Shown piece after piece: positions 4,290 through 25,562 of a stretch of DNA of 64,000 bases (position 1 is its first letter; each line of letters begins with the position of its first letter). The notes below the pieces were generated by a model that saw only the letters and a program-made list of their open reading frames with translations, was not told where the DNA came from and ran no database searches. The translations under genes and the position numbers were made by a program. The DNA comes from Candidatus Lloydbacteria bacterium RIFCSPHIGHO2_02_FULL_50_18 (GTDB lineage: Bacteria; Patescibacteriota; Minisyncoccia; Phycocordibacterales; UBA6899): the NCBI GenBank assembly GCA_001821395.1, contig MHLM01000015.1, forward strand, positions 1-64,000, in the 5' to 3' direction.

Positions 4290-4532
4290 CTATTTTTTCA
4301 GAAAAATCCACACAAATTGAACCCCATACCACAGATACCATGCTAACCATAAAACGAAATATGGTTGCAACTGGTGCAACTAATAGAATAAATATATGCA
4401 ATTTTTAAAATTAAGTCAAAAAATGGACATACTGAAGCCCTTTTCTGCCATTCTCGCTTCAAGAATGAACGGAGTGTCATTAGGAAAAATTGGTCGCGCA
4501 AAGCTCTTCGATTCCTGTTGGAGGAAATTCCA

Positions 4533-4572
4533 ATGCCGGGAATCTCGGCTACCGCCGCGGGTGATATTCAAT
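4533..4572. repeat. Repeat copy 1: 8-nt antisense tRNA-Pro 3' fragment (atgccggg) fused to a 34-nt element GGAATCTCGGCTACCGCCGCGGGTGATATTCAAT (identical at 25107-25140)
   Basis: Direct string identity between the two loci; a diverged third copy lies at 17406-17450. Confidence 0.7.
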
Positions 4573-4735
4573 CTCGACGACTCGATAATGAATATCCTTT
4601 CGATTCTCGTCGACAGTGCCGCAGAGTGAGAATCGGTCACGAGTTACTAAGCTTTTTATTTCGCTACGCTCATAAAAATCTAAGTACTCTCGACCCCGAC
4701 TCGCTCGCCTCGAAGACTCGGCATAGCTCCGTCTT

Positions 4736-4825
4736 TCGATCCCCGGGCGGGACTGAGGCAGCTCAGTCCCTCATCCCGACCATATGAAAAAACACCTGAT
4801 GGCGTTTTTTCATATGGTCGGGATG
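4736..4825. repeat. Plus-strand inverted partial copy of the tRNA-Pro 3' half (T-loop through CCA) interrupted by a 9-bp hairpin with a GCAG loop, followed by a 21-bp perfect inverted repeat that includes the real tRNA-Pro 3' end; also a bidirectional terminator
   Basis: ttcgatccccggg (4736-4748). Hairpin gggactgag-gcag-ctcagtccc (4749-4770). catcccgacca (4772-4782). Arms 4772-4792 / 4805-4825 with loop cacctgatggcg. Confidence 0.6.
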
Positions 4826-4888
4826 CCGGGAATCGAACCCGGTTCTTGCGAACCCGAATCGCAAATACTACCGGTGTACTACATCCCG
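4815..4888 (-). tRNA. tRNA-Pro (anticodon CGG), CCA encoded
   Basis: Manual cloverleaf: acceptor CGGGATG/CATCCCG with the C1:G72 pair typical of bacterial tRNA-Pro. Anticodon stem TGCGA/TCGCA, loop TTCGGGT, T-arm CCGGG-TTCGATT-CCCGG. 74 nt. Confidence 0.85.
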
Positions 4889-13649: not shown

Positions 13650-15044
13650 TTAATGTATTGAAAATTCCTCAGAGTGCACACAGCTCACCGGGACCTGCCA
13701 CTTTGCAAACTGAGACTTGATCGATCTCATCATGGGGGGTGGTCCGCACACAAAGATCTCCTTTCCTAGTAGATTTTTACTTTCGGCCGCAATGGCATCT
13801 GCCGACAAATACCCCTTCTCTACTCCATACCAAGGGATAAGGCGGAAATTCGGATTCGTTGCCGCAATCGAGCACAACTCTTCGTTCCATGCCGCACCCT
13901 CAGATGACATCGCCGAATAATACATATCTACCTTATAGTCGCTCTCTTTGGTCAGACTTCGTGCCATAGAGAGAAACGGTGTGACGCCGATCCCTCCGGC
14001 GATCCATATCTGCTCCTTGCAGGGATAATAGACATATGATGTCCTCCCGAAAGGACCCTCGATAACCGCGCGAGACCCGGGCATTATCCGATTCAATTGT
14101 TTCGTATAATCACCGAGGGCCTTGACTCCGATCGAAAGTTTATCGGTTCCCGGTGACGAAGTGAGCGAGAACGGATGCACTTCCTCGAGTCCCCTGGTAT
14201 CGGGAAATCCGATGAACACAAATTGACCGGGCGTGTAGCTCATCGGTTTTCCGTCCTTGGCATGCATGACGATCTCGACGATGCTCGGATTTATCTGTTT
14301 CACTTCATCAACCACATATTCGCGTCTTGGGATCAACAATGCGCCAAGGATCGTACGATACATGATACTTGCAAAGCCGATGGCCGCGAGAAACCACATG
14401 TAGTACTGAAGTACGGGAGATCGCGTCACATCGCTAGAGACGAAGAGCGCATGAAGCGCGCCGAAGAAAAAAGCGAAACCGAGAAATTTGTGCGTGAGCT
14501 TCCAAGTATGATATGGCAGCTTGATAAAAAAAGTAAGCACGAGAAACAGTATCATGAGGAGAAGTGCAACAACACCGAATAGATATGAGCATTCAGGGTT
14601 AACGAGACTGAACTGCGCAAAACAGAACGGATTTGCAATATAAAGCACATAACTGCTCTTCAATCCGATCGCCCCAAAACCAAGATACTGCGCGACCAAC
14701 AATATCGGATGAACAAGCAGAAGAATGAACGAGACTCCGCCCAAAATATGATGCACGATATACACCCGATTCATGCCGCCAAAGAGACTCTCGAGGAAGC
14801 GGAGGCGCGCACCAAGCACGAGGTTAAGCGCAAACATCGCCATGCCGACCAGACCGAGCGCTTGCCCGAGCGCCTGCATCGTGAGGGAAAAACTAAATGC
14901 TCCATGGCTGATAAAACGCTGATGGAGAGGAAGTGGTGTAAAAAACCAAAAGACGAGCGGAAGGAAGGACAGAAATAGCATTAGTGGCCACCCAAGTTTT
15001 GAGACACGAGGAAATTTCATTGCTTCATTGTAACACCTCACCAA
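13650..15044 (-). CDS. ferric reductase / NOX-like flavocytochrome (ferric-reductase TM domain fused to FAD- and NAD(P)-binding domains)
   Basis: N-terminal polytopic domain with conserved His. HPFSLTSSP (the FNR-type HPFT motif), GGIGVTP and CGPPPM NAD(P)-binding motifs. Confidence 0.7.
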   Translation of the reverse strand: MVRCYNEAMKFPRVSKLGWPLMLFLSFLPLVFWFFTPLPLHQRFISHGAFSFSLTMQALGQALGLVGMAMFALNLVLGARLRFLESLFGGMNRVYIVHHILGGVSFILLLVHPILLVAQYLGFGAIGLKSSYVLYIANPFCFAQFSLVNPECSYLFGVVALLLMILFLVLTFFIKLPYHTWKLTHKFLGFAFFFGALHALFVSSDVTRSPVLQYYMWFLAAIGFASIMYRTILGALLIPRREYVVDEVKQINPSIVEIVMHAKDGKPMSYTPGQFVFIGFPDTRGLEEVHPFSLTSSPGTDKLSIGVKALGDYTKQLNRIMPGSRAVIEGPFGRTSYVYYPCKEQIWIAGGIGVTPFLSMARSLTKESDYKVDMYYSAMSSEGAAWNEELCSIAATNPNFRLIPWYGVEKGYLSADAIAAESKNLLGKEIFVCGPPPMMRSIKSQFAKWQVPVSCVHSEEFSIH

Positions 15045-17349: not shown

Positions 17350-17405
17350 ACATACTGAGGCGTTAAGCCTCGACGCTCATTTTAACATATTTAACGCCCT
17401 AGCTG

Positions 17406-17450
17406 TGGACCATAACGGAATCTCCACCTACCGTGGCGGGTGGATTCTCC
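17406..17450. repeat. Degenerate tRNA-Ala 3'-end-like repeat (att-like), diverged copy of the 25096-25140 element, located just past the end of hsdR
   Basis: tggaccataacggaatctccacctaccgtggcgggtggattctcc, compared by eye with tggaccgtacaggaatctcggctaccgccgcgggtgatattc and with the 3' part of tRNA-Ala(GGC). Confidence 0.5.
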
Positions 17451-17469
17451 TACGGAACAATACAAATTG

Positions 17470-19827
17470 CTATTTTACCCCCGCGTACAAACTTCTCTGG
17501 AAATCAAAAAAGGTCGAGCGAATAGCGTCTACATCCCCGAGAATATCCACCGCATCAGCAATAGCGTGATATTTCAAATTGAGCAATTGCGGGAGCTTTT
17601 CTTCGTCGAGCTCCTCGACTCCGCGCTCGACATACTTAGCAAGTACGAACTCAAGAAAATCTTTTTGATCATCATTCAATCCGCCCAAGATTGCACTCTT
17701 GGCACCCAAAACACGATCGACGCGCGAGATTGGCTGTACGCAAAACGAGACATAAGCGAGCACGTCAAACAAATCACTGTTTTCCGCATCGATCATCTTT
17801 TGAAGTATCTCAAGCTCATCCTTCCCATACCCCGCCTCAGCAAGCTTATCGAGAAATACTTTTCTCGTACTTGGATTGGCCCAAATTTCACGAAGCTCAA
17901 CTTCATTCTTATAAAATGAAGGGAGTGCACCGAACATGTTGTTCATAAATTCCTCTACCGAGATCGGCTTCCCATCTGCGCTCCAAAATGAGGTGGAGAT
18001 CATATGCTTTATTTCTCGATCCTTTCCATCCCGCAACTTTATTTTAAGCTTTTGTATGGGTGGAGGCACATCGCACACGCACGGCTTCTGTCCGCACACA
18101 ACGCATGGCGCGGTCGGAGGCTTCACACACACACAGGGCGTCATACCACATGCTGCACAGGGTTGTTTCGGCGCTGGCTCCACTATCGGCTCATCAATGG
18201 GCTCTCCGTCCCACTCAGGGTCAGCGAAGTGATGATACGCATCCACAAAGTCATAGATAGTGAAATACTCCTTTCCGTCAAAGAGCCGAGTTCCTCGTCC
18301 AACGATCTGCTTAAACTCAATCATGGAGTTTACGGGGCGCATCAGTACAATATTGCGAATGTTTCGCGCATCGACTCCCGTCGAGAGCTTTTGTGAGGTA
18401 GTGAGGATGGTGGGGATACTTTTTTCATTATCCTGGAATTCTTTCAAATACTGATCCCCGCGAGCACCGTCATTGGCCGTCACGCGCACACAATAATTTG
18501 GCTCAGTGCTCTCTTTCATCTGATTCACCAAGTCACGCACTGCGAGTGCATGGTCTTGTGTTGCGCAAAAGATAATAGTCTTTTCGTTTTGATTTATCTC
18601 CTCAAGTATGACGCGTACACGCTTCGCCTCACGCTCCTTGATCTCGATGATCTTATTAAAGTCCGCCTCTTCGTAGATTTTTCCTTCCTCCACTTCCCCC
18701 TCGATGATCTGGTCGTCCGAAGTGTACACATAATCATCCATCGTCGTCTTGATACGCTTCACCTTAAATGGCGTCAGAAATCCGTCATTCACTCCGGTTT
18801 TGAGCGAGTAAGTGTATACGGGCTTTCCGAAATAGTTGTAGGTGTCCACGTTGTCTTGCCTGCGTGGCGTCGCGGTGAGCCCAAGGTGTACCGCAGGCGC
18901 GAAGTGCTCGAGGATCGCTCGCCAATTGCTCTCATCGTTCGCACCCCCACGATGACACTCGTCAATAATGATCAGATCAAAAAAGTCCGAGGGATAGTCC
19001 CCGAAATATGGCGAACCATTTTGCCCGCTCATAAAAGTCTGGAATATGGTGAAAAAGATGCTCCCATTTGTGGGCACAGCACCCTTCTTCCGTATATCAA
19101 GTGGATTAATGCGCACAAGTGCATCCTCATGGAAAGCCGAGAATGAATTAAATGCCTGATTTGCTAAAATATTTCTGTCGGCAAGAAAGAGGATTCTCGG
19201 GCGCCTCCCTCCATCTCGCGCCAAGTTCCATCGTGACTGAAAAAGCTTCCACGCGATCTGAAATGCAATAAAAGTTTTCCCCGTGCCTGTCGCAAGCGTT
19301 AGAAGCGCCCGTTGCTTGTTTTCCGCAATTGCATCGAGTGTATTGTTCACGGCAATTTCTTGATAGTATCGCGCACTCTTTGTGCCGTTCATATCCTCAA
19401 ACGGGACAGCGGCAAATTTCTCCTTCCATGCATTTTGGTCAGAATAGACCATGTTCCATAATTCATCAGGAGTCGGGAAACGTTCCACATATTTCTCCGC
19501 ACCCGTCTCCATGCATATCTCGTATATTTCTTTGCCGTTAGTGGCATAGGTATATTTGATCTCAAGTTTCTCAGCATAAGCCTTCGCCTGTGCGACGCCC
19601 TCCGTCGCCGAGAGTCCCTCATGCTTTGCCTCCACAACCCCGATCTTCATGTTTTTATAAACCAAAATATAGTCAGCGATCTCAGGCTTCCCGCGTACTC
19701 CACCAGTCATAATGCGTCCGAGGGTTATGCGAAACTCCCGCAGGACCTTCGATCCCTCGATCTCGCCCCATCCGGCTTCTTTCAGCTTCGGATCAACATA
19801 TTCCGCTCGTGTTTCAGATTCATTCAT
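17470..19827 (-). CDS. hsdR: type I restriction enzyme R subunit
   Basis: N-terminal PD-(D/E)xK (ADYIL...VVEAKHEG). SF2 motifs (LATGTGKTF, DECHRG, TATPRRQ, motifs V/VI). EcoEI-R-type C-terminal domain. Unusual Cys-rich insert at 18067-18159. Confidence 0.85.
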   Translation of the reverse strand: MNESETRAEYVDPKLKEAGWGEIEGSKVLREFRITLGRIMTGGVRGKPEIADYILVYKNMKIGVVEAKHEGLSATEGVAQAKAYAEKLEIKYTYATNGKEIYEICMETGAEKYVERFPTPDELWNMVYSDQNAWKEKFAAVPFEDMNGTKSARYYQEIAVNNTLDAIAENKQRALLTLATGTGKTFIAFQIAWKLFQSRWNLARDGGRRPRILFLADRNILANQAFNSFSAFHEDALVRINPLDIRKKGAVPTNGSIFFTIFQTFMSGQNGSPYFGDYPSDFFDLIIIDECHRGGANDESNWRAILEHFAPAVHLGLTATPRRQDNVDTYNYFGKPVYTYSLKTGVNDGFLTPFKVKRIKTTMDDYVYTSDDQIIEGEVEEGKIYEEADFNKIIEIKEREAKRVRVILEEINQNEKTIIFCATQDHALAVRDLVNQMKESTEPNYCVRVTANDGARGDQYLKEFQDNEKSIPTILTTSQKLSTGVDARNIRNIVLMRPVNSMIEFKQIVGRGTRLFDGKEYFTIYDFVDAYHHFADPEWDGEPIDEPIVEPAPKQPCAACGMTPCVCVKPPTAPCVVCGQKPCVCDVPPPIQKLKIKLRDGKDREIKHMISTSFWSADGKPISVEEFMNNMFGALPSFYKNEVELREIWANPSTRKVFLDKLAEAGYGKDELEILQKMIDAENSDLFDVLAYVSFCVQPISRVDRVLGAKSAILGGLNDDQKDFLEFVLAKYVERGVEELDEEKLPQLLNLKYHAIADAVDILGDVDAIRSTFFDFQRSLYAGVK

Positions 19828-20477
19828 GATGATTGTTTCGCACCATACTGCTTAACTGCCACACCGTCATATCTTTCTTTGAGTCCCTCATAAATAAGAC
19901 TCACGAGGGGCTTATAATCATCGGCATGATCGATTTGCGCAAGCGCCTGACGGTAGCGATTCTTATTTTCCTTTTCTACTTTTATTGATATACCAATTAA
20001 CCCGTAGCGCTCCAAAATCAAATTCGCAGCAAGACGAGCAGTGCGTCCGTTCCCATCCCGAAATGGATGAACGCAGGTGATAGAATAATGCAACCATGCC
20101 GCCAGATGAATAACTCGCTCAACCGTCTGATGGACTTTCGCCATGCTTACATTTTTTCCTCTTATTATTCCCTCTGCTTTATCTAGCGCTTGTAATTTTT
20201 TCTGCAACTCGACCTCCCTTTCGTTCATGAGGTCATTTATTTTTGAGTGATGAGGGGGGACGTGACTTGAGTCTGTTATTTCAAGATTTTCCGTTCTATA
20301 CTTTCCCGCAATATCAGGCCAGGCATCTTTGAATATTTCCCGATGAATTTCCTTGATCGTTTCAATCGAAATACCCTTGTGTGATCGTGCAAATTTTCTT
20401 ACAAAACGAGAAGCGCGGATCACTCCAATCGCTTCTCGTTTTTGTAACTCTTCTTCCGAGCGCGGACACTCTACCAT
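19824..20477 (-). CDS. Fic/DOC-family protein (putative AMPylating toxin, FicT-like)
   Basis: Fic motif HPFRDGNGRTARL. Confidence 0.85.
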   Translation of the reverse strand: MVECPRSEEELQKREAIGVIRASRFVRKFARSHKGISIETIKEIHREIFKDAWPDIAGKYRTENLEITDSSHVPPHHSKINDLMNEREVELQKKLQALDKAEGIIRGKNVSMAKVHQTVERVIHLAAWLHYSITCVHPFRDGNGRTARLAANLILERYGLIGISIKVEKENKNRYRQALAQIDHADDYKPLVSLIYEGLKERYDGVAVKQYGAKQSS

Positions 20478-20485
20478 GGCAATGC

Positions 20486-20680
20486 TTACGCTACTTTTAG
20501 CGCAAGTTTTTCAAATTCCCCGCGATCAAGCTTGCTTCCCTCAAGCGCACTCGAATAATAGGCATGCTCAATATCCCAACTTTTTTCAAGGGCGGATTTT
20601 TGTTTTGGCGTAAGCTGAGAAATCTGTCGTTCTGCAACTTTCTTACTCGCCATTAACTGTACGAGCCGTAGATTCTTCAT
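20486..20680 (-). CDS. FicA/VbhA-like small antitoxin carrying the inhibitory [S/T]xxxE[G/N] helix motif
   Basis: 64-aa ORF. Motif IEHAYYSSALEGS. Its stop lies 9 nt before the Fic ATG, in a different frame. Confidence 0.55.
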   Translation of the reverse strand: MKNLRLVQLMASKKVAERQISQLTPKQKSALEKSWDIEHAYYSSALEGSKLDRGEFEKLALKVA

Positions 20681-20772
20681 GGATATGACTATACCACTAT
20701 TTGACTATTTTACAACTCCTCATGTTTCAGGGGTGACTCCTTGGCCTTGAAAGGTGTCTCCTCGGAAACTGC

Positions 20773-21978
20773 TCACAACTCCCCAGCAAAGGCCTTTTTC
20801 AACACTGATTTTTTAAGCTCCTCAATATCAGCAAGTTTTTGCCCGTAGATTCCTTCAAGTTTTTTTGTCTGCTCCGCAAGCGCATCGAGCTTTTTGACGA
20901 TGGTTTTTTGCTCTGAGACAGATGGAAATGGAAACCGCTCATGCTCAAACGTTGCCATGTTGATATTGGCCTGCGCACTTCCTTTTCCTTTTGCCTGGAG
21001 TACTGCCTTAAATGATTGCAAAAGATACTCGACAAAATTAGTATCTGCAATTTTGGGATTAGCAACAAGTCCGATCACGCTATCAGGAAAACACGCATCG
21101 AAATTCAGAATTCCAGTTTCTGCGATATTCGCCGCAATCGTAATGCAGATAGTTCCTCTCGGCCACAGCTTGCTCTGCGCCAGTCCCGCCTCGCTATACG
21201 ACTGTGAGTACTCCACAATAAAGTGTCCAGAATTTCGAATATCTCCCGTCTGAATAAAGGGGTACTTTCCGCCATAGAGTTTTTTGTCGTTTCTTGGGCG
21301 ATGCTTAGATTTTCCTCTGCCGAATTGCAGGGAGACTTCTTCTAGCGTCTTTTTCTCCCATTTCGAATTTTCAAAAACCCCCTGCAAATACGATTCAAAA
21401 AGTTCGCGGGAATTCTTCAAATTCTTCTCCGCATTCTCCTTCGCCTTCTCCACTCCCTCAAAAACCTCATCAAGAATTTTTACGATGCGCTTTTGCTCGA
21501 TCGCAGAAGGAAAAGGTATCTCAACCTCTTTTAATTTTGTTCCAGAAAGTTCCTTAAAAGTTGTACCACTACCCAAACTATTCAAAAGTTCAACTGAATC
21601 TTTCAAAAAATAATAGAGAAATTTTGTATCAAGATTTTTATTCGGTATTAATCCCTTACACCCCTGATTTGTTGAAATTTCTTTTGTGTTTATCGCCAAG
21701 TGACCAATCGGAGCACGGGTAGACAAAATAATCGAGTTGGGTGGAATGATTTTTGCTGACGACCTTTCTAATCCAGCCTTTGAAATTTTTCGTTCTGTTT
21801 CCTCAACGTATATTTTCCTAAGTCTCCCCATGTCTTTGGGTGTGATCCACAAAATATTTCCATCCCAGTACCTCAAAACGCCCGTTTTAGGAGTTCCTCC
21901 GTTTACAATCTCGCAAACCTCCCCAAGTTTTTTTATTTGCCAGTTAGTTTTCATAGTGAGAAATAATTTGCTTTCCAT
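20773..21978 (-). CDS. hsdS: type I restriction-modification specificity subunit
   Basis: Two target-recognition-domain layout with conserved central/C-terminal helices. TRD motif EIVNGGTPKT. Alternative start ATG at 21954. Confidence 0.85.
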   Translation of the reverse strand: MESKLFLTMKTNWQIKKLGEVCEIVNGGTPKTGVLRYWDGNILWITPKDMGRLRKIYVEETERKISKAGLERSSAKIIPPNSIILSTRAPIGHLAINTKEISTNQGCKGLIPNKNLDTKFLYYFLKDSVELLNSLGSGTTFKELSGTKLKEVEIPFPSAIEQKRIVKILDEVFEGVEKAKENAEKNLKNSRELFESYLQGVFENSKWEKKTLEEVSLQFGRGKSKHRPRNDKKLYGGKYPFIQTGDIRNSGHFIVEYSQSYSEAGLAQSKLWPRGTICITIAANIAETGILNFDACFPDSVIGLVANPKIADTNFVEYLLQSFKAVLQAKGKGSAQANINMATFEHERFPFPSVSEQKTIVKKLDALAEQTKKLEGIYGQKLADIEELKKSVLKKAFAGEL

Positions 21979-23113
21979 TCTGTATCAATTGGTCGTAAGT
22001 GAGAATGTCTATATCATGTAAACTAGAGTTTAAAAAATGAAGAGCTTTTTTCTCATCCTCAGTAAAGGCATCTGACCGACCGAGAATGAGCTGGACTCTT
22101 GGTCTTAGTATTCGAACAGAGTGCTGAATCGACAAAGTTTTTTTATAGTCTTCGATTCTTTGTAAATAAATTAAGGACTGACCAATTGCTTCCGAGAAAG
22201 GGCTCGTAGGGAAATGGCAACGATGCGAAGTATCATATCTAAACAGCGGGCTGCCGACACTTGGCCTCTTAACTTCAATGAGGCTGATAAATCCATCGGG
22301 CGTTTCGAGTACGATGTCTGCCTCAGAGTTATCTTCTCCAATCTTCCTGAATGTGTGCTTTTTGTAGTACTCGACTCCAAAAACCCACAAATTAGCCCCA
22401 ATCCATTTATGAAACACACCCTCTGGTTGATTTGCGTGATATTTCTTTAGTGCACCATTTCCTTTTATTGCCTCAAGGAAATTCACGTCAGATTCGATGC
22501 TTAAAAGGTATTCTAAATTAGCAATAGCCTCTTTGTGTTCTTTTTGTTTTATTGCTGCGCTCAAACTCTCGACGTCAAGGGCATCAATATTCTCAATAAA
22601 CTTCTGAAATAAACTATTTCTTTCAGCGGTGCCCAACTTATTAAAAAGCTGAAACAGCTGATCAGATGTTAATGCTTGCGACCCATGCAATAACTGTGAA
22701 AATGCATTCTTTCGCTCCACAAGTTCACTTACGTTTTGATCAGTAAATTTTAAATTTTCCTTAGAAGTTAAGTCCAGTAAATCTAATGATTCAAGAAACT
22801 TAATAAAGCGAGTAAGTGCTCCTCCATGAAAACTGAAAGATTGATTATGTGGTATGCCAGTATCTTTTGAAAATCTTTGAATGCGCAATGAAAACCCAGT
22901 GGTGTCTTGATTATAAATAGCGGTTATTTCTTGCACTGCGCTTTCGCGTATGACCTCAAAAACTTTCTTTTCTTTTTGATCGTTATAAAAATCTTTAAAA
23001 TCTTTTAGCTCAAATACTTTTGAAATGTATCTGATGTTCCCATCTTTCCCAATCGCCCTACTCACATAAGTAAGTGCGGGGTCTTTTTTGATCGCATACT
23101 CTCCATTGCTCAT
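21944..23113 (-). CDS. uncharacterised protein with a putative PD-(D/E)xK nuclease core, nested between hsdM and hsdS (possibly DUF4263/Shedu-like; candidate accessory defence gene)
   Basis: 389 aa. Motif SEADIVLETPDGFISLIEVKRP (D...E-x-K). The gene overlaps both neighbours by a few nt, so it is in the operon. Confidence 0.5.
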   Translation of the reverse strand: MSNGEYAIKKDPALTYVSRAIGKDGNIRYISKVFELKDFKDFYNDQKEKKVFEVIRESAVQEITAIYNQDTTGFSLRIQRFSKDTGIPHNQSFSFHGGALTRFIKFLESLDLLDLTSKENLKFTDQNVSELVERKNAFSQLLHGSQALTSDQLFQLFNKLGTAERNSLFQKFIENIDALDVESLSAAIKQKEHKEAIANLEYLLSIESDVNFLEAIKGNGALKKYHANQPEGVFHKWIGANLWVFGVEYYKKHTFRKIGEDNSEADIVLETPDGFISLIEVKRPSVGSPLFRYDTSHRCHFPTSPFSEAIGQSLIYLQRIEDYKKTLSIQHSVRILRPRVQLILGRSDAFTEDEKKALHFLNSSLHDIDILTYDQLIQNGKQIISHYEN

Positions 23114-24555
23114 AACAAGTTTTTCAATATCTGAGCACTTTCTTTATCCAATTTCTCCATTTCCTTCAAAATCTCCTTCGGGGTGCGCAGCGCTACCTCA
23201 CCTCCCTTGTTTGGATTCTTTGCCGATAGGTCGAAGGTCTTCTGGTCGACGTCTTTTATGTCTATGCTCCATGAATTTTCAGAATCACCATTCGTCTCTT
23301 GGAGTTTTATAAAATCAGCAAGGTCGGCTTCGTTGAGTGCATTGGTCTTGCCGAGGTTGCGGTCGAGGTTGAGCTGATAGAACCAGACTTTTTTCGTTGG
23401 TGCACCCTTCTCAAAAAAGAGTATGACCGTTTTCACCCCTGCACCAGTGAATGTGCCACCTGGCAGGTCGAGCACGGTGTGGAGATTGCAACTTTCAAGC
23501 AGCATTTTGCGAAGCGACACCGAAGCATTGTCGGTGTTGGAAAGAAAGGTGTTTTTGATGACCACACCCGCTTTTCCTCCGGCTTTCAGCATTTTGATGA
23601 AATGCTGGAGAAAAAGAAATGCCGTCTCTCCCGTTTTGATAGGAAAATTCTGCTGTACCTCAGGTCTCTCTGAGCCTCCAAATGGCGGATTCGCAAGCAC
23701 GATCTCATAGCGGTCTTTCTCCTGAATATCCGCAAGGTTTTCGGCAAGTGTGTTGGTGTGAATGATGTTCGGAGCCTCGATGCCATGGAGAATCATGTTC
23801 ATGATGCCAATGATGTAGGCGAGCGATTTCTTCTCCTTGCCGTAAAATGTCTTCTTCTGAAGTGTCTGCATGTCGCTTGTCGAAAGCTTCTTGCTCTCCT
23901 TCAAGTATTCAAACGCTTCCACGAGGAATCCCGCCGAGCCCACAGCCCCATCATAGACTTTATCGCCGATTTTTGGAGCGACCACCTTCACGATGGTCTT
24001 GATGAGTGGGCGCGGGGTGTAGTACTCGCCACCATTGCGCCCTGCGTTGCCCATGTTCTTTATCTTGCCCTCGTAAAGGTGTGAAAGCTCGTGCTTTTCG
24101 CTCTGCGAGCGAAAGTGCATTCCATCCACGAGGTTCAGCACCTCGCGGAGGTTGTACCCACTTTGTATCTTGTTTTTGATCTCGCTAAAAATTTCTCCGA
24201 TCTTGTACTCGATCGTGTCGGGACTCACTGCATCCGCCTTGAATTTCTTGAAATACGGAAAAAGCTCGCGCTCGACGAAATCCTTAAGGTCATCACCCGA
24301 CAGTGCTTTGCTGTGGTCAATCTTCTTATCTCCTGTCTTGGGCACTGCCCACACTTCCCAGCGAAACTTCGGCGAGATGATATATTCGTATTTTTTACCT
24401 GCGAGCTTCGCCTCGGTCTCCTTATCCTTTTCAAGATCATCAAGATACTTGAGAAAGAGCACCCACGAAGTCTGCTCGATATAATCCAGCTCACTCGACG
24501 CCCCCGCATCCTTACGCAATATGTCATCAATATTTTTAAAGTGTTGTTCAAACAT
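23110..24555 (-). CDS. hsdM: type I restriction-modification N6-adenine DNA methyltransferase
   Basis: HsdM N-terminal domain. SAM-binding motif DGAVGSAGFL. Catalytic motif NPPFG. Start moved to ATG 24555 because the longer ORF would overlap the tRNA. Confidence 0.9.
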   Translation of the reverse strand: MFEQHFKNIDDILRKDAGASSELDYIEQTSWVLFLKYLDDLEKDKETEAKLAGKKYEYIISPKFRWEVWAVPKTGDKKIDHSKALSGDDLKDFVERELFPYFKKFKADAVSPDTIEYKIGEIFSEIKNKIQSGYNLREVLNLVDGMHFRSQSEKHELSHLYEGKIKNMGNAGRNGGEYYTPRPLIKTIVKVVAPKIGDKVYDGAVGSAGFLVEAFEYLKESKKLSTSDMQTLQKKTFYGKEKKSLAYIIGIMNMILHGIEAPNIIHTNTLAENLADIQEKDRYEIVLANPPFGGSERPEVQQNFPIKTGETAFLFLQHFIKMLKAGGKAGVVIKNTFLSNTDNASVSLRKMLLESCNLHTVLDLPGGTFTGAGVKTVILFFEKGAPTKKVWFYQLNLDRNLGKTNALNEADLADFIKLQETNGDSENSWSIDIKDVDQKTFDLSAKNPNKGGEVALRTPKEILKEMEKLDKESAQILKNLL

Positions 24556-24561
24556 TTTTTT

Positions 24562-24637
24562 TGGTGGACCATGGGAGAATCGAACTCCCCACCTCTTCCA
24601 TGCCATGGAAGCGCTCTACCAAATGAGCTAATGGCCC
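24562..24637 (-). tRNA. tRNA-Ala (anticodon GGC), CCA encoded
   Basis: Manual fold: acceptor GGGCCAT/ATGGTCC with G3:U70. D-arm GCTC-ATTTGGTA-GAGC. Anticodon loop ATGGCAT. T-arm GGGAG-TTCGATT-CTCCC. 76 nt. Confidence 0.85.
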
Positions 24638-24892
24638 GTAGAAAGATGATAACTTACAAATGGGTTTTCTTCAATGAAGACGGGGGGGGTCGAGTCGTGA
24701 AGGGAGTCGAAGCTTATTCGAGATCGTCATCGCAAGCTTTGTGGAGATGGCAAGTCGTGTAGTGCGTTGCCGGAGGGCAACACTGCTACGAAAAAGCCAA
24801 CCGGGTGTCTGGCTTTGCGGACTTGGCTTACAGCTTCAGTACGCCTTTTCGATTTATTCAGAGCGAAGCTCTTCATAAATAACGAAAAGCCC

Positions 24893-24988
24893 TTCGACTC
24901 CCCGCCGCAAGTGAAGCAGTTCACTTGCTTGAGTCCACAGGTACAAAAAAATTACGATTTCTCGTAATTTTTTTGTACCTGTGGACTC
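24893..24988. repeat. Inverted partial copy of the tRNA-Ala(CGC) 3' half (T-loop, GCAG-loop hairpin insert, acceptor 3' strand) followed by a 27-bp perfect inverted repeat / bidirectional terminator
   Basis: ttcgactccccg (24893-24904). Hairpin gcaagtgaa-gcag-ttcacttgc (24907-24928). Arms 24931-24957 / 24962-24988 with loop tttc. Confidence 0.6.
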
Positions 24989-25052
24989 ACGGGGAGTCGA
25001 ACCCCGGACTCGGCAATGCGAATGCCGTGTAATACCACTTTACTATGAGCCC
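24982..25052 (-). tRNA. tRNA-Ala (anticodon CGC), CCA not encoded
   Basis: Manual fold: acceptor GGGCTCA/TGAGTCC with G3:U70. Anticodon arm CGGCA-TTCGCAT-TGCCG. T-arm CGGGG-TTCGACT-CCCCG. Confidence 0.8.
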
Positions 25053-25095: not shown

Positions 25096-25140
25096 TGGAC
25101 CGTACAGGAATCTCGGCTACCGCCGCGGGTGATATTCAAT
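25096..25140. repeat. Repeat copy 2: 14-nt antisense copy of the tRNA-Ala(UGC) 3' end (tggaccgtacagga) fused to the same 34-nt element as 4539-4572; first unit of a degenerate tandem array of tRNA-3' fragments (cgtacaggaat at 25101, 25145 and 25314)
   Basis: Exact 34/34 identity with 4539-4572. Repeated cgtacaggaat and ccagtttc-r-attt strings between 25096 and 25420. Confidence 0.65.
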
Positions 25141-25398
25141 TTCGTACAGGAATTTCGACGCCTACTGCGTCAGTACCCAGTTTCAATTTGAATACAGGAC
25201 TCTTCCTCTACGAGGACAGTATACCTTTCACCACAGAGAGTACTTCTTGTTTTCTAGCTCACTTCGTTCGTAAGTAAACAATGTCGTCCGTTTACTGAGG
25301 ATAAGAATCCTGCCGTACAGGAATCTCTCCCCTTACAGGGGCAGTGTCCAGTTTCGATTTACTCAAAATAGGAATTTCTCGTAAATATCGAAACAGGC

Positions 25399-25500
25399 TT
25401 CGAGTCCTTACGCAAGCAATGCAGATTGCTTGCTACGGTCCACACCATATAAGAAAAAACTGCCTTACGGCAGTTTTTACTTTATGGTGTGGACCGTACA
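25399..25500. repeat. Inverted partial copy of the tRNA-Ala(UGC) 3' half with GCAG-loop hairpin insert, plus a long imperfect inverted repeat / terminator
   Basis: ttcgagtcct (25399-25408). Hairpin gcaagcaat-gcag-attgcttgc (25412-25433). tacggtccacacc (25434-25446) inverted against gtgtggaccgta (25486-25497). Terminator aaaaactgcc-ttac-ggcagttttt. Confidence 0.55.
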
Positions 25501-25562
25501 GGACTCGAACCTGCCACCCCCGCATTGCAAATGCGGTGCTCTACCAGATGAGCTAACGGCCC
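25490..25562 (-). tRNA. tRNA-Ala (anticodon UGC), CCA not encoded
   Basis: Manual fold: acceptor GGGCCGT/ACGGTCC with G3:U70. Anticodon arm CCGCA-TTTGCAA-TGCGG. T-arm GCAGG-TTCGAGT-CCTGT. Confidence 0.85.

Follow-up and report, generated by a model that had tools for sequence, protein, structure and literature searches.

What is a 34-nt sequence that occurs twice, without a single difference, in one bacterial contig, each time fused to a 3′-end piece of a different neighboring tRNA gene? This question was raised by positions 1–64,000 of contig MHLM01000015.1 of Candidatus Lloydbacteria bacterium RIFCSPHIGHO2_02_FULL_50_18, a stretch of 64,000 nt that is called the window throughout this text. 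The Lloydbacteria and the Taylorbacteria are tiny bacteria of the Candidate Phyla Radiation (CPR), which are known solely via metagenome-assembled genomes. The original prediction, made from the sequence of the window, had interpreted the copies as attachment-site (att)-like scars of integrative elements that recombine within the tRNA T-loop or, alternatively, as an uncharacterized tRNA-associated repeat family. The alternative turned out to fit best: the 34-mer does not stand alone as an att arm but forms the 3′-module of an element of 100–350 nt that follows tRNA genes.

The 34-mer is the 3′-module of a larger element

The 34-mer GGAATCTCGGCTACCGCCGCGGGTGATATTCAAT (plus strand) is present in two exact copies in the window, at 4539–4572 and 25107–25140, whereas none was expected by chance (100 shuffles). 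When one mismatch is allowed, the two copies agree over 38 nt, and no additional copies were found in the window when up to three mismatches were allowed. Nearly all genes of the window and all four tRNA genes are located on the minus strand, and positions given below refer to this strand unless stated otherwise. The tRNA genes were identified with ARAGORN and encode tRNA-Pro(CGG) (4815–4888; Rfam tRNA, 56 bits), tRNA-Ala(GGC) (24562–24637), tRNA-Ala(CGC) (24981–25052), and tRNA-Ala(UGC) (25489–25562; also found with the Rfam tRNA model); the latter three are also written ggc, cgc, and tgc in the following.

In the orientation of the tRNA genes the 34-mer reads ATTGAATATCACCCGCGGCGGTAGCCGAGATTCC. 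Its Pro-side copy runs into CGGCAT, and the resulting GATTCCCGGCAT is a 12-nt exact repeat of tRNA-Pro. The Ala-side copy runs into TGTACGGTCCA, and TCCTGTACGGTCCA is a 14-nt exact repeat of tRNA-Ala(tgc). The shared GATTCC or TCC is included in these lengths. The cognate tRNA is located 270 nt (Pro) and 380 nt (Ala(tgc)) upstream of the tail, and at both loci the junction between the 34-mer and the tRNA tail lies within the T-loop. The identity, the fusion to two different tRNA pieces, and the position of the junction had all been predicted and were verified. The predicted diverged third copy at the far end of a type I restriction-modification (R-M) island is also real. It is located at 17406–17455, at the stop codon of hsdR, and has the sequence CCACCCG-CCAC-GGTAG-GTGG-AGATTCC, followed by ..ATGGTCCAC.

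Four further diverged copies of the module, which had been missed, were found in the spacers between the three tRNA-Ala genes. Three of them are in the Ala(tgc)-Ala(cgc) spacer (25143–25189, 25193–25224, and 25311–25360), and one is in the Ala(cgc)-Ala(ggc) spacer (24817–24844). Antisense partner segments directly behind each tRNA had been missed as well. The 34-mer consists exactly of the 3′-strand of a hairpin termed P2, the junction CACCCG, a hairpin termed P3, and AGATTCC, and is thus part of a larger element.

Architecture and predicted fold

Relatives with the Ddl-tRNA-Ala neighborhood were drawn from genome and metagenome collections by a Ddl-anchored search (L001, L003, L004, L005 from the Taylorbacteria, L081–L083, L085, L087, L088, and L096). 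In the window the three tRNA-Ala genes for UGC, CGC, and GGC form a single co-oriented array immediately after ddl, and this neighborhood is shared by Lloydbacteria and Taylorbacteria, albeit with rearrangements. Six other samples yielded contigs of the same population, which were identical to the window or differed in one base.

The element was found in Candidatus Lloydbacteria and Taylorbacteria. It has the same orientation as the tRNA gene and is located directly after many tRNA genes, usually beyond a bidirectional terminator hairpin. Seven parts could be distinguished. The first is complementary to the 3′-strand of the tRNA acceptor stem and therefore equals the 5′-strand of the tRNA; in the alanine elements G3 is changed to A. 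The second is the hairpin hp1 with a 9-bp stem and the conserved loop CTGC, and the third is the complement of the T-stem 3′-strand and the T-loop (..A[N]TCGAA), e.g., AGGACTCGAA (Ala-tgc), CGGGGAGTCGAA (Ala-cgc), and GGCAGGATTCGAA (Lys). The fourth is the hairpin P2, the tip of which accepts inserts of widely differing length. It is followed by the junction CACCCG or (N)ACTG as the fifth part and by the hairpin P3 (4–5 bp, loop G(G)TA(G/A)) as the sixth. The seventh part begins with (A)GA(G/A)ATTCC or CGAATCC and continues as a sense copy of the T-stem and acceptor 3′-strands, spanning the tRNA from the T-loop to the discriminator. The same order of parts was found in the window, L001, L004, L081, L082, and L083, where it follows tRNA-Ala(tgc, cgc, ggc), tRNA-Pro, and tRNA-Lys. 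In L005 and L088 from the Taylorbacteria the 3′-module and the sense tail are present and the antisense segment is absent.

Parts 1 and 3 pair with part 7 and thereby form a closing helix. In the minimum free energy fold of the 356-nt Ala(tgc) spacer, GUGGACCGUA (25434–25443) is closed on UACGGUCCA (25096–25104), with a z-score of −5.85 compared to shuffled sequences. Since the antisense and sense ends pair and the antisense segment equals the tRNA 5′-strand, the fold is predicted to be tRNA-shaped, with an acceptor-like helix stacked on a T-stem-like helix. In this model hp1 would occupy the place of the D and anticodon arms, and P2 and P3 would stand in for the T-loop. The alanine elements contain A3:U70 in place of the G3:U70 identity pair. 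In this model the pieces at the 34-mer that had been described as antisense tRNA fragments are the 3′-strand of the closing helix and not displaced tRNA ends.

The known RNAs that come closest in shape are tRNA-like structures, i.e., mascRNA/MEN-beta, the 3′ tRNA-like structures (TLS) of plant viruses, and the tRNA domain of tmRNA. Like these, the element has an acceptor-type helix on a T-stem that ends at the discriminator base, and it has an arm at the place of the D and anticodon arms. It could thus be a plausible substrate of tRNA end-processing enzymes. Unlike in these RNAs, the T-loop is replaced by a three-way junction with P2 and P3, and the mimicry is cognate to the adjacent gene and not generic. 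The Rfam models for tRNA, mascRNA, TLS, and tmRNA did not match the elements.

Selection acts on the structure and on one strand

The stems of the element covary. In hp1, 97.5% of the alignment cells are paired and six of the nine pairs are altered on both sides, while the values for P3 are 85.5% and five of five pairs. None of 500 shuffles attained the score of either hairpin, and slid controls yielded only 26–41% (hp1) and 35–51% (P3) pairing. The outer helix of P2 differs in sequence in nearly every element, but the pairing is kept (ATATTCA/TGAATAT, GGTTTTCA/TGAAAACC, AATTGGTG/CACCAATT, and CTTTGCG/CGCAAAG). The same is true for the closing helix, which remains paired in L081 (GGCGGACTT/AAGTTCGCC versus AAGTCCGCT in the tRNA) although both strands have diverged from the tRNA, and likewise in the cgc element of L001 (GCGGGGAG/CTCCCCGC versus CTCCCCGT). 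These compensatory changes fall in the T-stem part of the helix.

Entire spacers were compared with shuffled sequences and yielded folding z-scores of −3.99, −4.3, and −4.95 in addition to the value given above. In 14 of the 15 elements the fold of the tRNA-sense strand is better than that of its complement, and the non-Watson-Crick pairs of hp1 are G-U pairs on the tRNA-sense strand. Taken together, we regard it as established that selection acts on a single strand that is folded and has the polarity of the tRNA. The working form would be this single strand, most probably as RNA.

These results bear on the view that the elements are functionless by-products of local duplication and quasi-palindrome template switching near tRNA terminators. 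Inverted and direct copies of tRNA tails do flank long perfect hairpins, a configuration in which template switching homogenizes the arms, and many copies are decayed. Yet the stems covary, and the loops and junctions (CTGC, CACCCG/ACTG, and G(G)TA(G)) as well as the order of the modules are kept behind five tRNAs and in two candidate phyla. We consider this the least credible of all explanations discussed here.

The element was found only in the 3′-flank of tRNA genes

Two models were built, one for hp1 with the antisense T segment (R1) and one for the 3′-module (R2), and were used to search about 475 kb of CPR sequence. All 10 hp1 matches and all 15 credible 3′-modules were found in DNA trailing tRNA genes, and, with the exception of the module at the island's end, each module is located within a few hundred bases of its tRNA. 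Related loci devoid of tRNA genes, which amounted to about 120 kb, contained no R1 or R2 element. To locate the tRNA-Pro region in relatives, loci anchored on homologues of NuoB and DUF2207 were retrieved; they had lost synteny, contained neither tRNA nor element, and served as negative controls. R1 yielded no credible match in 704 kb of non-CPR loci (best E-value 0.15) and no match in 384 kb of viral contigs. When the viral contigs were searched with three patterns of the module, one gave nothing and two gave unrelated, mostly protein-coding phage DNA at about the rate expected by chance. Within the DNA searched, the linkage to tRNA genes thus holds, and the sequence is neither a generic intergenic repeat nor part of a non-coding RNA unrelated to tRNA genes.

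Each element resembles its own tRNA. In 10 of the 15 modules a stretch of 8 nt or more is identical to the tail of the own tRNA, compared to medians of 3–7 nt for other tRNAs. The matches to the own tRNA comprise 10–14 nt on the antisense side and 9–19 nt on the sense side, and the co-oriented exact sense repeats have lengths of 12, 14, and 9 nt in the window, 19 nt in L083, and 12 nt in L005.

With Rfam 15, at gathering as well as permissive thresholds, only the tRNAs passed, and all other matches were sub-threshold hairpin look-alikes. One of them was tmRNA_permuted, with 27.9 bits compared to a cut-off of 47. Possible roles as a hammerhead ribozyme, a box C/D guide, a primer-binding site of the retroviral type, or an anticodon mimic were also considered and rejected, because the core motifs are absent or are not conserved between copies. 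Literature searches retrieved no description of elements that trail tRNA genes and carry antisense and sense copies of the 3′-end of their neighbor. Apparently, this family has not been described so far.

One R2 match was of a different kind. At 17350–17377 on the plus strand, between the island-side module and the start codon of an ABC transporter gene, a weak inverted look-alike of the 3′-module was observed (ACATACTG-AGGC-GTTA-AGCCT-CG; E-value 3.1), which may be a mere hairpin of the 5′-untranslated region.

Short, non-coding, strand-biased hairpins with structure-preserving substitutions are also known from REP and PATE repeats, and the elements might be repeats of this kind that are mobilized as single-stranded DNA by an IS200/IS605-type (Y1, HUH) transposase and merely accumulate behind tRNA genes. 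The richness in hairpins, the strand bias, and the compensatory evolution are in line with this view, and a Y1 transposase gene (PF01797, E-value 7.5e-33) is located near one array, in L001. However, REP and PATE families are dispersed intergenically, whereas the present elements trail tRNA genes exclusively in the about 475 kb that were searched. In addition, the cognate segments have a length of 10–20 nt, while IS200/IS605 elements recognize targets of 4–5 nt and generate no target duplication, and the window is devoid of a Y1 gene. This origin is therefore very improbable.

The element arrays behind tRNA-Pro and the tRNA-Ala genes

The first array trails tRNA-Pro. It begins with an extended hairpin (4772–4825), the 5′-arm of which is the tRNA-Pro 3′-strand (CATCCCGACCA...) and which has a terminator-like tip with A- and T-runs. 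The antisense acceptor segment TGGTCGGGATG (4772–4782), an antisense match of 11 nt, forms the 3′-arm of this hairpin, and the layout causes the weak match to tmRNA_permuted. The following hp1 (GGGACTGAG-CTGC-CTCAGTCCC) with the antisense T-stem/T-loop CCCGGGGATCGAA (4735–4770) is supported by covariation and by R1 (44 bits, E-value 9e-10). A variable body (4599–4734) includes, as revealed by sequence comparison, a second type of module that is shared with L001, L005, L081, and L083; it also contains another piece resembling an antisense T-loop, GAGAATCGAA (4599–4608). The 3′-module with the 34-mer (4533–4595) is composed of P2 (ATATTCA at 4589–4595 paired with TGAATAT at 4564–4570), the junction CACCCG (4558–4563), P3 (CGGC-GGTA-GCCG, 4546–4557), AGATTCC (4539–4545), and the cognate tail CGGCAT (4533–4538). 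It is followed by a further, partial element (4440–4532), which contains the antisense T-loop GGAATCGAA (4507–4515), the beginning of P2, and the module CGACCAATTTTTCC.. that is common to L001, L081, and L083. This partial element stops short of the promoter-like site of nuoB at 4391–4419.

The array behind tRNA-Ala(UGC) also starts with an extended hairpin (25434–25498), which reaches from the 3′-strand of the tRNA via a bidirectional terminator (25455–25478) to the antisense acceptor GTGGACCGTA (25434–25443). The latter equals the 5′ acceptor strand of the tRNA with the change of G3 to A. The next parts are hp1 (GCAAGCAAT-CTGC-ATTGCTTGC) with the antisense T segment (25399–25433; R1, 50.8 bits), and P2 with the 3′-module of this first element (25311–25398; ACACTG-CCCCT-GTA-AGGGG-AGAGATTCC-TGTACGG, R2 match at 25322–25348). 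Two 3′-modules without a 5′-module follow, both found with R2, namely ..TCCTC-GTA-GAGGA-AGAGTCCTGTA at 25193–25224 and ..GACGC-AGTAG-GCGTC-GAAATTCCTGTACG at 25143–25189, the latter of which is located inside the P2 stem of the last element. The array ends with the second exact 34-mer and its tRNA-Ala(UGC) tail (25096–25140), which pairs with 25434–25443 in the spacer fold. Directly behind it are a promoter-like site and the tRNA-Ala(CGC) gene.

The tRNA-Ala(CGC) locus (24812–25052) contains an extended hairpin (24931–24988), hp1 with the antisense T segment (24893–24928), P2, and a decayed 3′-module (24817–24844). Its element is collinear with L001 12104–12240 (the Ddl proteins are 79% identical), with compensatory differences in hp1, P2, and the tip of P2. 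The decayed tail CAAGTCCGC (24817–24830) fits the T-loop/T-stem of an L081-type tRNA-Ala(ggc) over 9 nt, better than it fits its own tRNA; this likeness may be due to chance or may go back to an older allele of tRNA-Ala(ggc) at this position.

The terminator hairpins behind the three tRNAs (24931–24988, 25434–25498, and 4772–4825) are near-perfect and span 54–65 nt. Their 5′-arm is the acceptor 3′-strand of the tRNA itself, and they yielded weak Rfam matches to permuted tmRNA and miRNA precursors. In an RNA generated by read-through, the formation of these hairpins would compete with that of the cloverleaf.

The defense island and its boundary

An intact tRNA gene together with a co-oriented cognate 3′-fragment on the same replicon is the classical signature of an integrated island and is used by the program Islander, which rejects intervals below 2 kb (PMC4383910). 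The signature is present in the window, and the interpretation of the copies as att scars has to be judged in this light. It states that they are attR-type remnants of related integrase-bearing islands, that recombination took place in the T-loop, that the 34-mer is a conserved attP arm, and that the short intervals represent decayed islands, comparable to att-flanked remnants that are devoid of an integrase (CIMEs). In four of the five cases, however, the interval between tRNA and fragment is only about 270–390 nt, and solely the tRNA-Ala(ggc) interval of 7.1 kb falls within the range of Islander (2–200 kb).

This interval is a defense island (17470–24555) that contains hsdM, a gene for a protein with an SduA_C domain, hsdS, a small open reading frame (ORF), a Fic gene, and hsdR. 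The type I R-M operon is thus interleaved with genes for an SduA_C (Shedu-type nuclease domain) protein and a Fic protein. The GC content of the island is 0.38–0.44, compared to 0.49–0.52 in the flanks. The ATG of hsdM is located 7 nt past the end of tRNA-Ala(ggc), leaving no promoter-like spacer, and the operon may be transcribed from the tRNA promoter. At the far end the diverged 3′-module with the tail GTTATGGTCCAC (17406–17455; found with R2) begins at the hsdR stop codon. From TCC onward its tail (TCCGTTATGGTCCAC) fits the tRNA-Ala(GGC) of L081, L004, and L085 (14/15) better than that of the window, and its P3 is identical to the P3 of a 100-nt island-free element in L081. The island-side module therefore looks like the remnant of an element that was disrupted by the island, perhaps in conjunction with a replacement tRNA gene.

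Several further observations are in agreement with att scars. The T-loop, in which the repeats begin, is a known class of integrase sublocation. The R-M island has a low GC content and is flanked exactly by the tRNA on one side and a 3′-module on the other; elements are present behind some tRNAs and missing behind orthologous ones; and tandem and nested copies exist. In addition, the interval between tRNA-Ala(ggc) and the ABC transporter gene is a variable hotspot in the relatives. The linkage to tRNAs, the cognate pieces, the start in the T-loop, and the bounded island thus stand from the original prediction, and likenesses to tDNA islands (PMC4383910) are the intact tRNA, its co-oriented own 3′-copy starting in the T-loop, the tandem copies, and one low-GC defense island.

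The integrative machinery that this interpretation calls for was not found. In Pfam scans of 39 of the larger ORFs of the window, including all five large island ORFs (one ORF of 64 aa was unscanned), no integrase (PF00589) or recombinase was detected, and a heuristic search of 430 kb of related CPR loci with the box II pattern of tyrosine recombinases gave nothing credible. Unlike in tDNA islands, most intervals comprise only 100–390 nt, and hairpins that covary and are conserved in two candidate phyla are still present in them, an outcome that is not expected from random decay. The att-scar interpretation does not account for the antisense tRNA copies, and the island-side module matches an island-free element of L081. 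Finally, the Pro fragment is incomplete: its identity to the tRNA stops at ..GGCAT, and the adjoining sequence is another partial element instead of the native flank. The fragment therefore does not look like a displaced functional 3′-end. An origin of the copies as att scars is thus quite improbable. The element-free relatives L003, L085, and L226 are too diverged for a definition of breakpoints, and a look-up of HsdR retrieved only identical or near-identical contigs of the same population, in which no polymorphism was seen.

The content of the interval between tRNA-Ala(ggc) and the ABC transporter gene differs among the relatives (contigs with the transporter homologue were short or diverged). 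In L001 it contains elements, an IS200-type Y1 transposase gene, and other genes, and in L226 one small ORF. The transposase gene of L001 (12961–13395, plus strand) is intact, encodes a Y1 (HUH) transposase, and is located about 270 nt past the last Ala(ggc) element. One of its flanking hairpins (TCGCGG-CTG-CCGCGA) includes CTGC as in the loop of hp1; an inspection of the flanks of this IS200 copy revealed no sequence link to the elements. In L083 (15395–15991) a T-arm-like fragment GTCGGCGGTTCGAGCCGAT, a terminator, and a converging ORF for a coiled-coil protein of 202 aa follow tRNA-Ala(ggc). This ORF was considered as the C-terminal remnant of a serine recombinase, an assignment that was rejected after Pfam yielded zero matches. 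Elsewhere in L083 (14517–14700, plus strand) a tRNA-Ala-like gene (GGGCCCGTAGCTCATCTGGTAGAGCGCGTCATTTTCAC...) is apparently split in the anticodon loop. The insert has a 13-nt inverted repeat (CCCTGTTAGACAT/ATGTCTAACAGGG) around a complete tRNA-Ala(cgc) gene (14572–14645) and is followed by the 3′-half of the host gene (..GGCAAGCGGTTCGAGTCCGCTTGGGTCCAC). This would be a tRNA gene nested in another tRNA gene; the split host tRNA was not called by ARAGORN in intron mode.

A possible mobile element with the antisense segment as a guide

The island and the patchy arrays also raise the possibility that the element is mobile DNA of another kind. It could be a non-autonomous, guide-bearing element or cassette that targets tRNA 3′-ends with its antisense segment as the guide, with the help of an enzyme encoded elsewhere. 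In that case the module with the 34-mer would be the right end, the sense tRNA piece would be a target duplication or the core of a crossover, and the variable bodies, including the 7.1-kb island, would be cargo between the tRNA and the right end. The EBS/IBS pairing of group II introns and the guide sequences of IS200/IS605 elements would be analogues.

This explanation accounts for the same 34/34 right-end module on two tRNA tails, and for antisense segments that are perfectly cognate to the tRNA immediately upstream, for five isoacceptors and in species with differing Ala(ggc) T-arms. The patchy presence at orthologous tRNA loci, the tandem, nested, and 5′-incomplete copies, and the low-GC island exactly between a tRNA end and a right-end module also agree with it. 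If the genes are co-oriented with replication, the better-folding strand would be the template of the lagging strand, which single-stranded DNA transposons prefer, and the IS200-type Y1 transposase gene past the elements of L001 is a further point in its favor. On patchiness, arrays, the identical module, and the island it is better than an explanation based on a functional RNA.

Apart from the IS200 copy of L001, however, no recombinase or transposase was found in the window (Pfam scans) or beside the elements elsewhere. The length of the repeats ranges from 5 to 19 nt, whereas that of a target duplication would be fixed, and older members of the arrays are devoid of left ends, which should have been preserved if insertion into the tRNA had been serial. 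The contigs of the same population were 100% identical or differed by one base, so that no polymorphism was caught, and the collinear elements of the window and L001 are old enough to have accumulated compensatory changes. Taken together, a guide-bearing mobile element is the main alternative to an RNA, albeit a somewhat unlikely one.

A more far-reaching version would be a new system of tRNA-anchored cassettes, which we regard as unlikely. The antisense segment would program the insertion behind one particular tRNA gene, CACCCG-P3 would be the recombination end, and the system would be an equivalent of integrons with a separate enzyme. Its cargo would range from a bare hairpin to a promoterless 7-kb defense operon, with transcription supplied by the tRNA. 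The similarity to integron attC sites lies in a structure that is more conserved than the sequence, a module right after a stop codon, arrays of short units without ORFs, and a promoterless gene block 7 nt after a transcribed upstream gene. In contrast to integrons, no IntI was detected in the Pfam scans, the array is anchored on a tRNA gene, and a single gene-bearing unit was seen. Visual inspection of the alignment of 15 modules revealed no GTTRRRY core (a check by eye, without a formal pattern search).

Discussion

The architecture of the element, its cognate matching, its covariation and strand bias, and, in the DNA searched, its exclusive association with tRNA genes have been established in the preceding sections. 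As an explanation we tentatively prefer a tRNA-shaped RNA. Read-through past the tRNA terminator would generate the element RNA, which would be freed by enzymes that recognize the acceptor/T helix, i.e., the tRNA end-processing enzymes RNase P and RNase Z. Owing to the A3:U70 pair, alanine elements would not be charged. Recombination or gene conversion between copies would account for the 34/34 identical module on two different tRNA tails, and the 3′-module at 17406–17455 would be what was left of one element after its disruption by the island of the window.

Several points weigh against the proposed RNA. Strong intrinsic terminators are located between most tRNAs and their element, and no promoter-like site that belongs to the element was found, so that the element RNA would need read-through. 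A genomic strand bias could be responsible for part of the G excess and of the folding bias. Decay of the sense tails is frequent, and the cgc element of the window and that of L004 retain matches of only 5 nt. Elements are patchy among related tRNA loci and are absent in L003, L085, L087, L096, and L226. Many copies are partial, nested, or devoid of the 5′-module. Such a pattern resembles that of selfish or recombining DNA more than that of a housekeeping RNA. Furthermore, the identity of 34–38 nt on two tRNA tails needs a copying event, which is covered by the assumed gene conversion only.

One practical consequence is that the "tRNA fragment" signatures of the elements could mislead island-finding programs and tRNA annotators. 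To our knowledge, the non-coding DNA of CPR bacteria has hardly been explored so far. The element described here is conserved, covaries, has a predicted tRNA shape, and accompanies individual tRNA genes, of whose 3′-ends it carries antisense and sense copies. If it is mobile DNA, it would represent a sequence-programmed targeting of tRNA genes without a resident integrase and might explain how defense islands land behind tRNA genes in reduced genomes. If it is an RNA, it would be a new class of tRNA mimic, which may be related to tRNA processing, to the decoying of tRNA-directed enzymes, or to the marking of tRNA loci.

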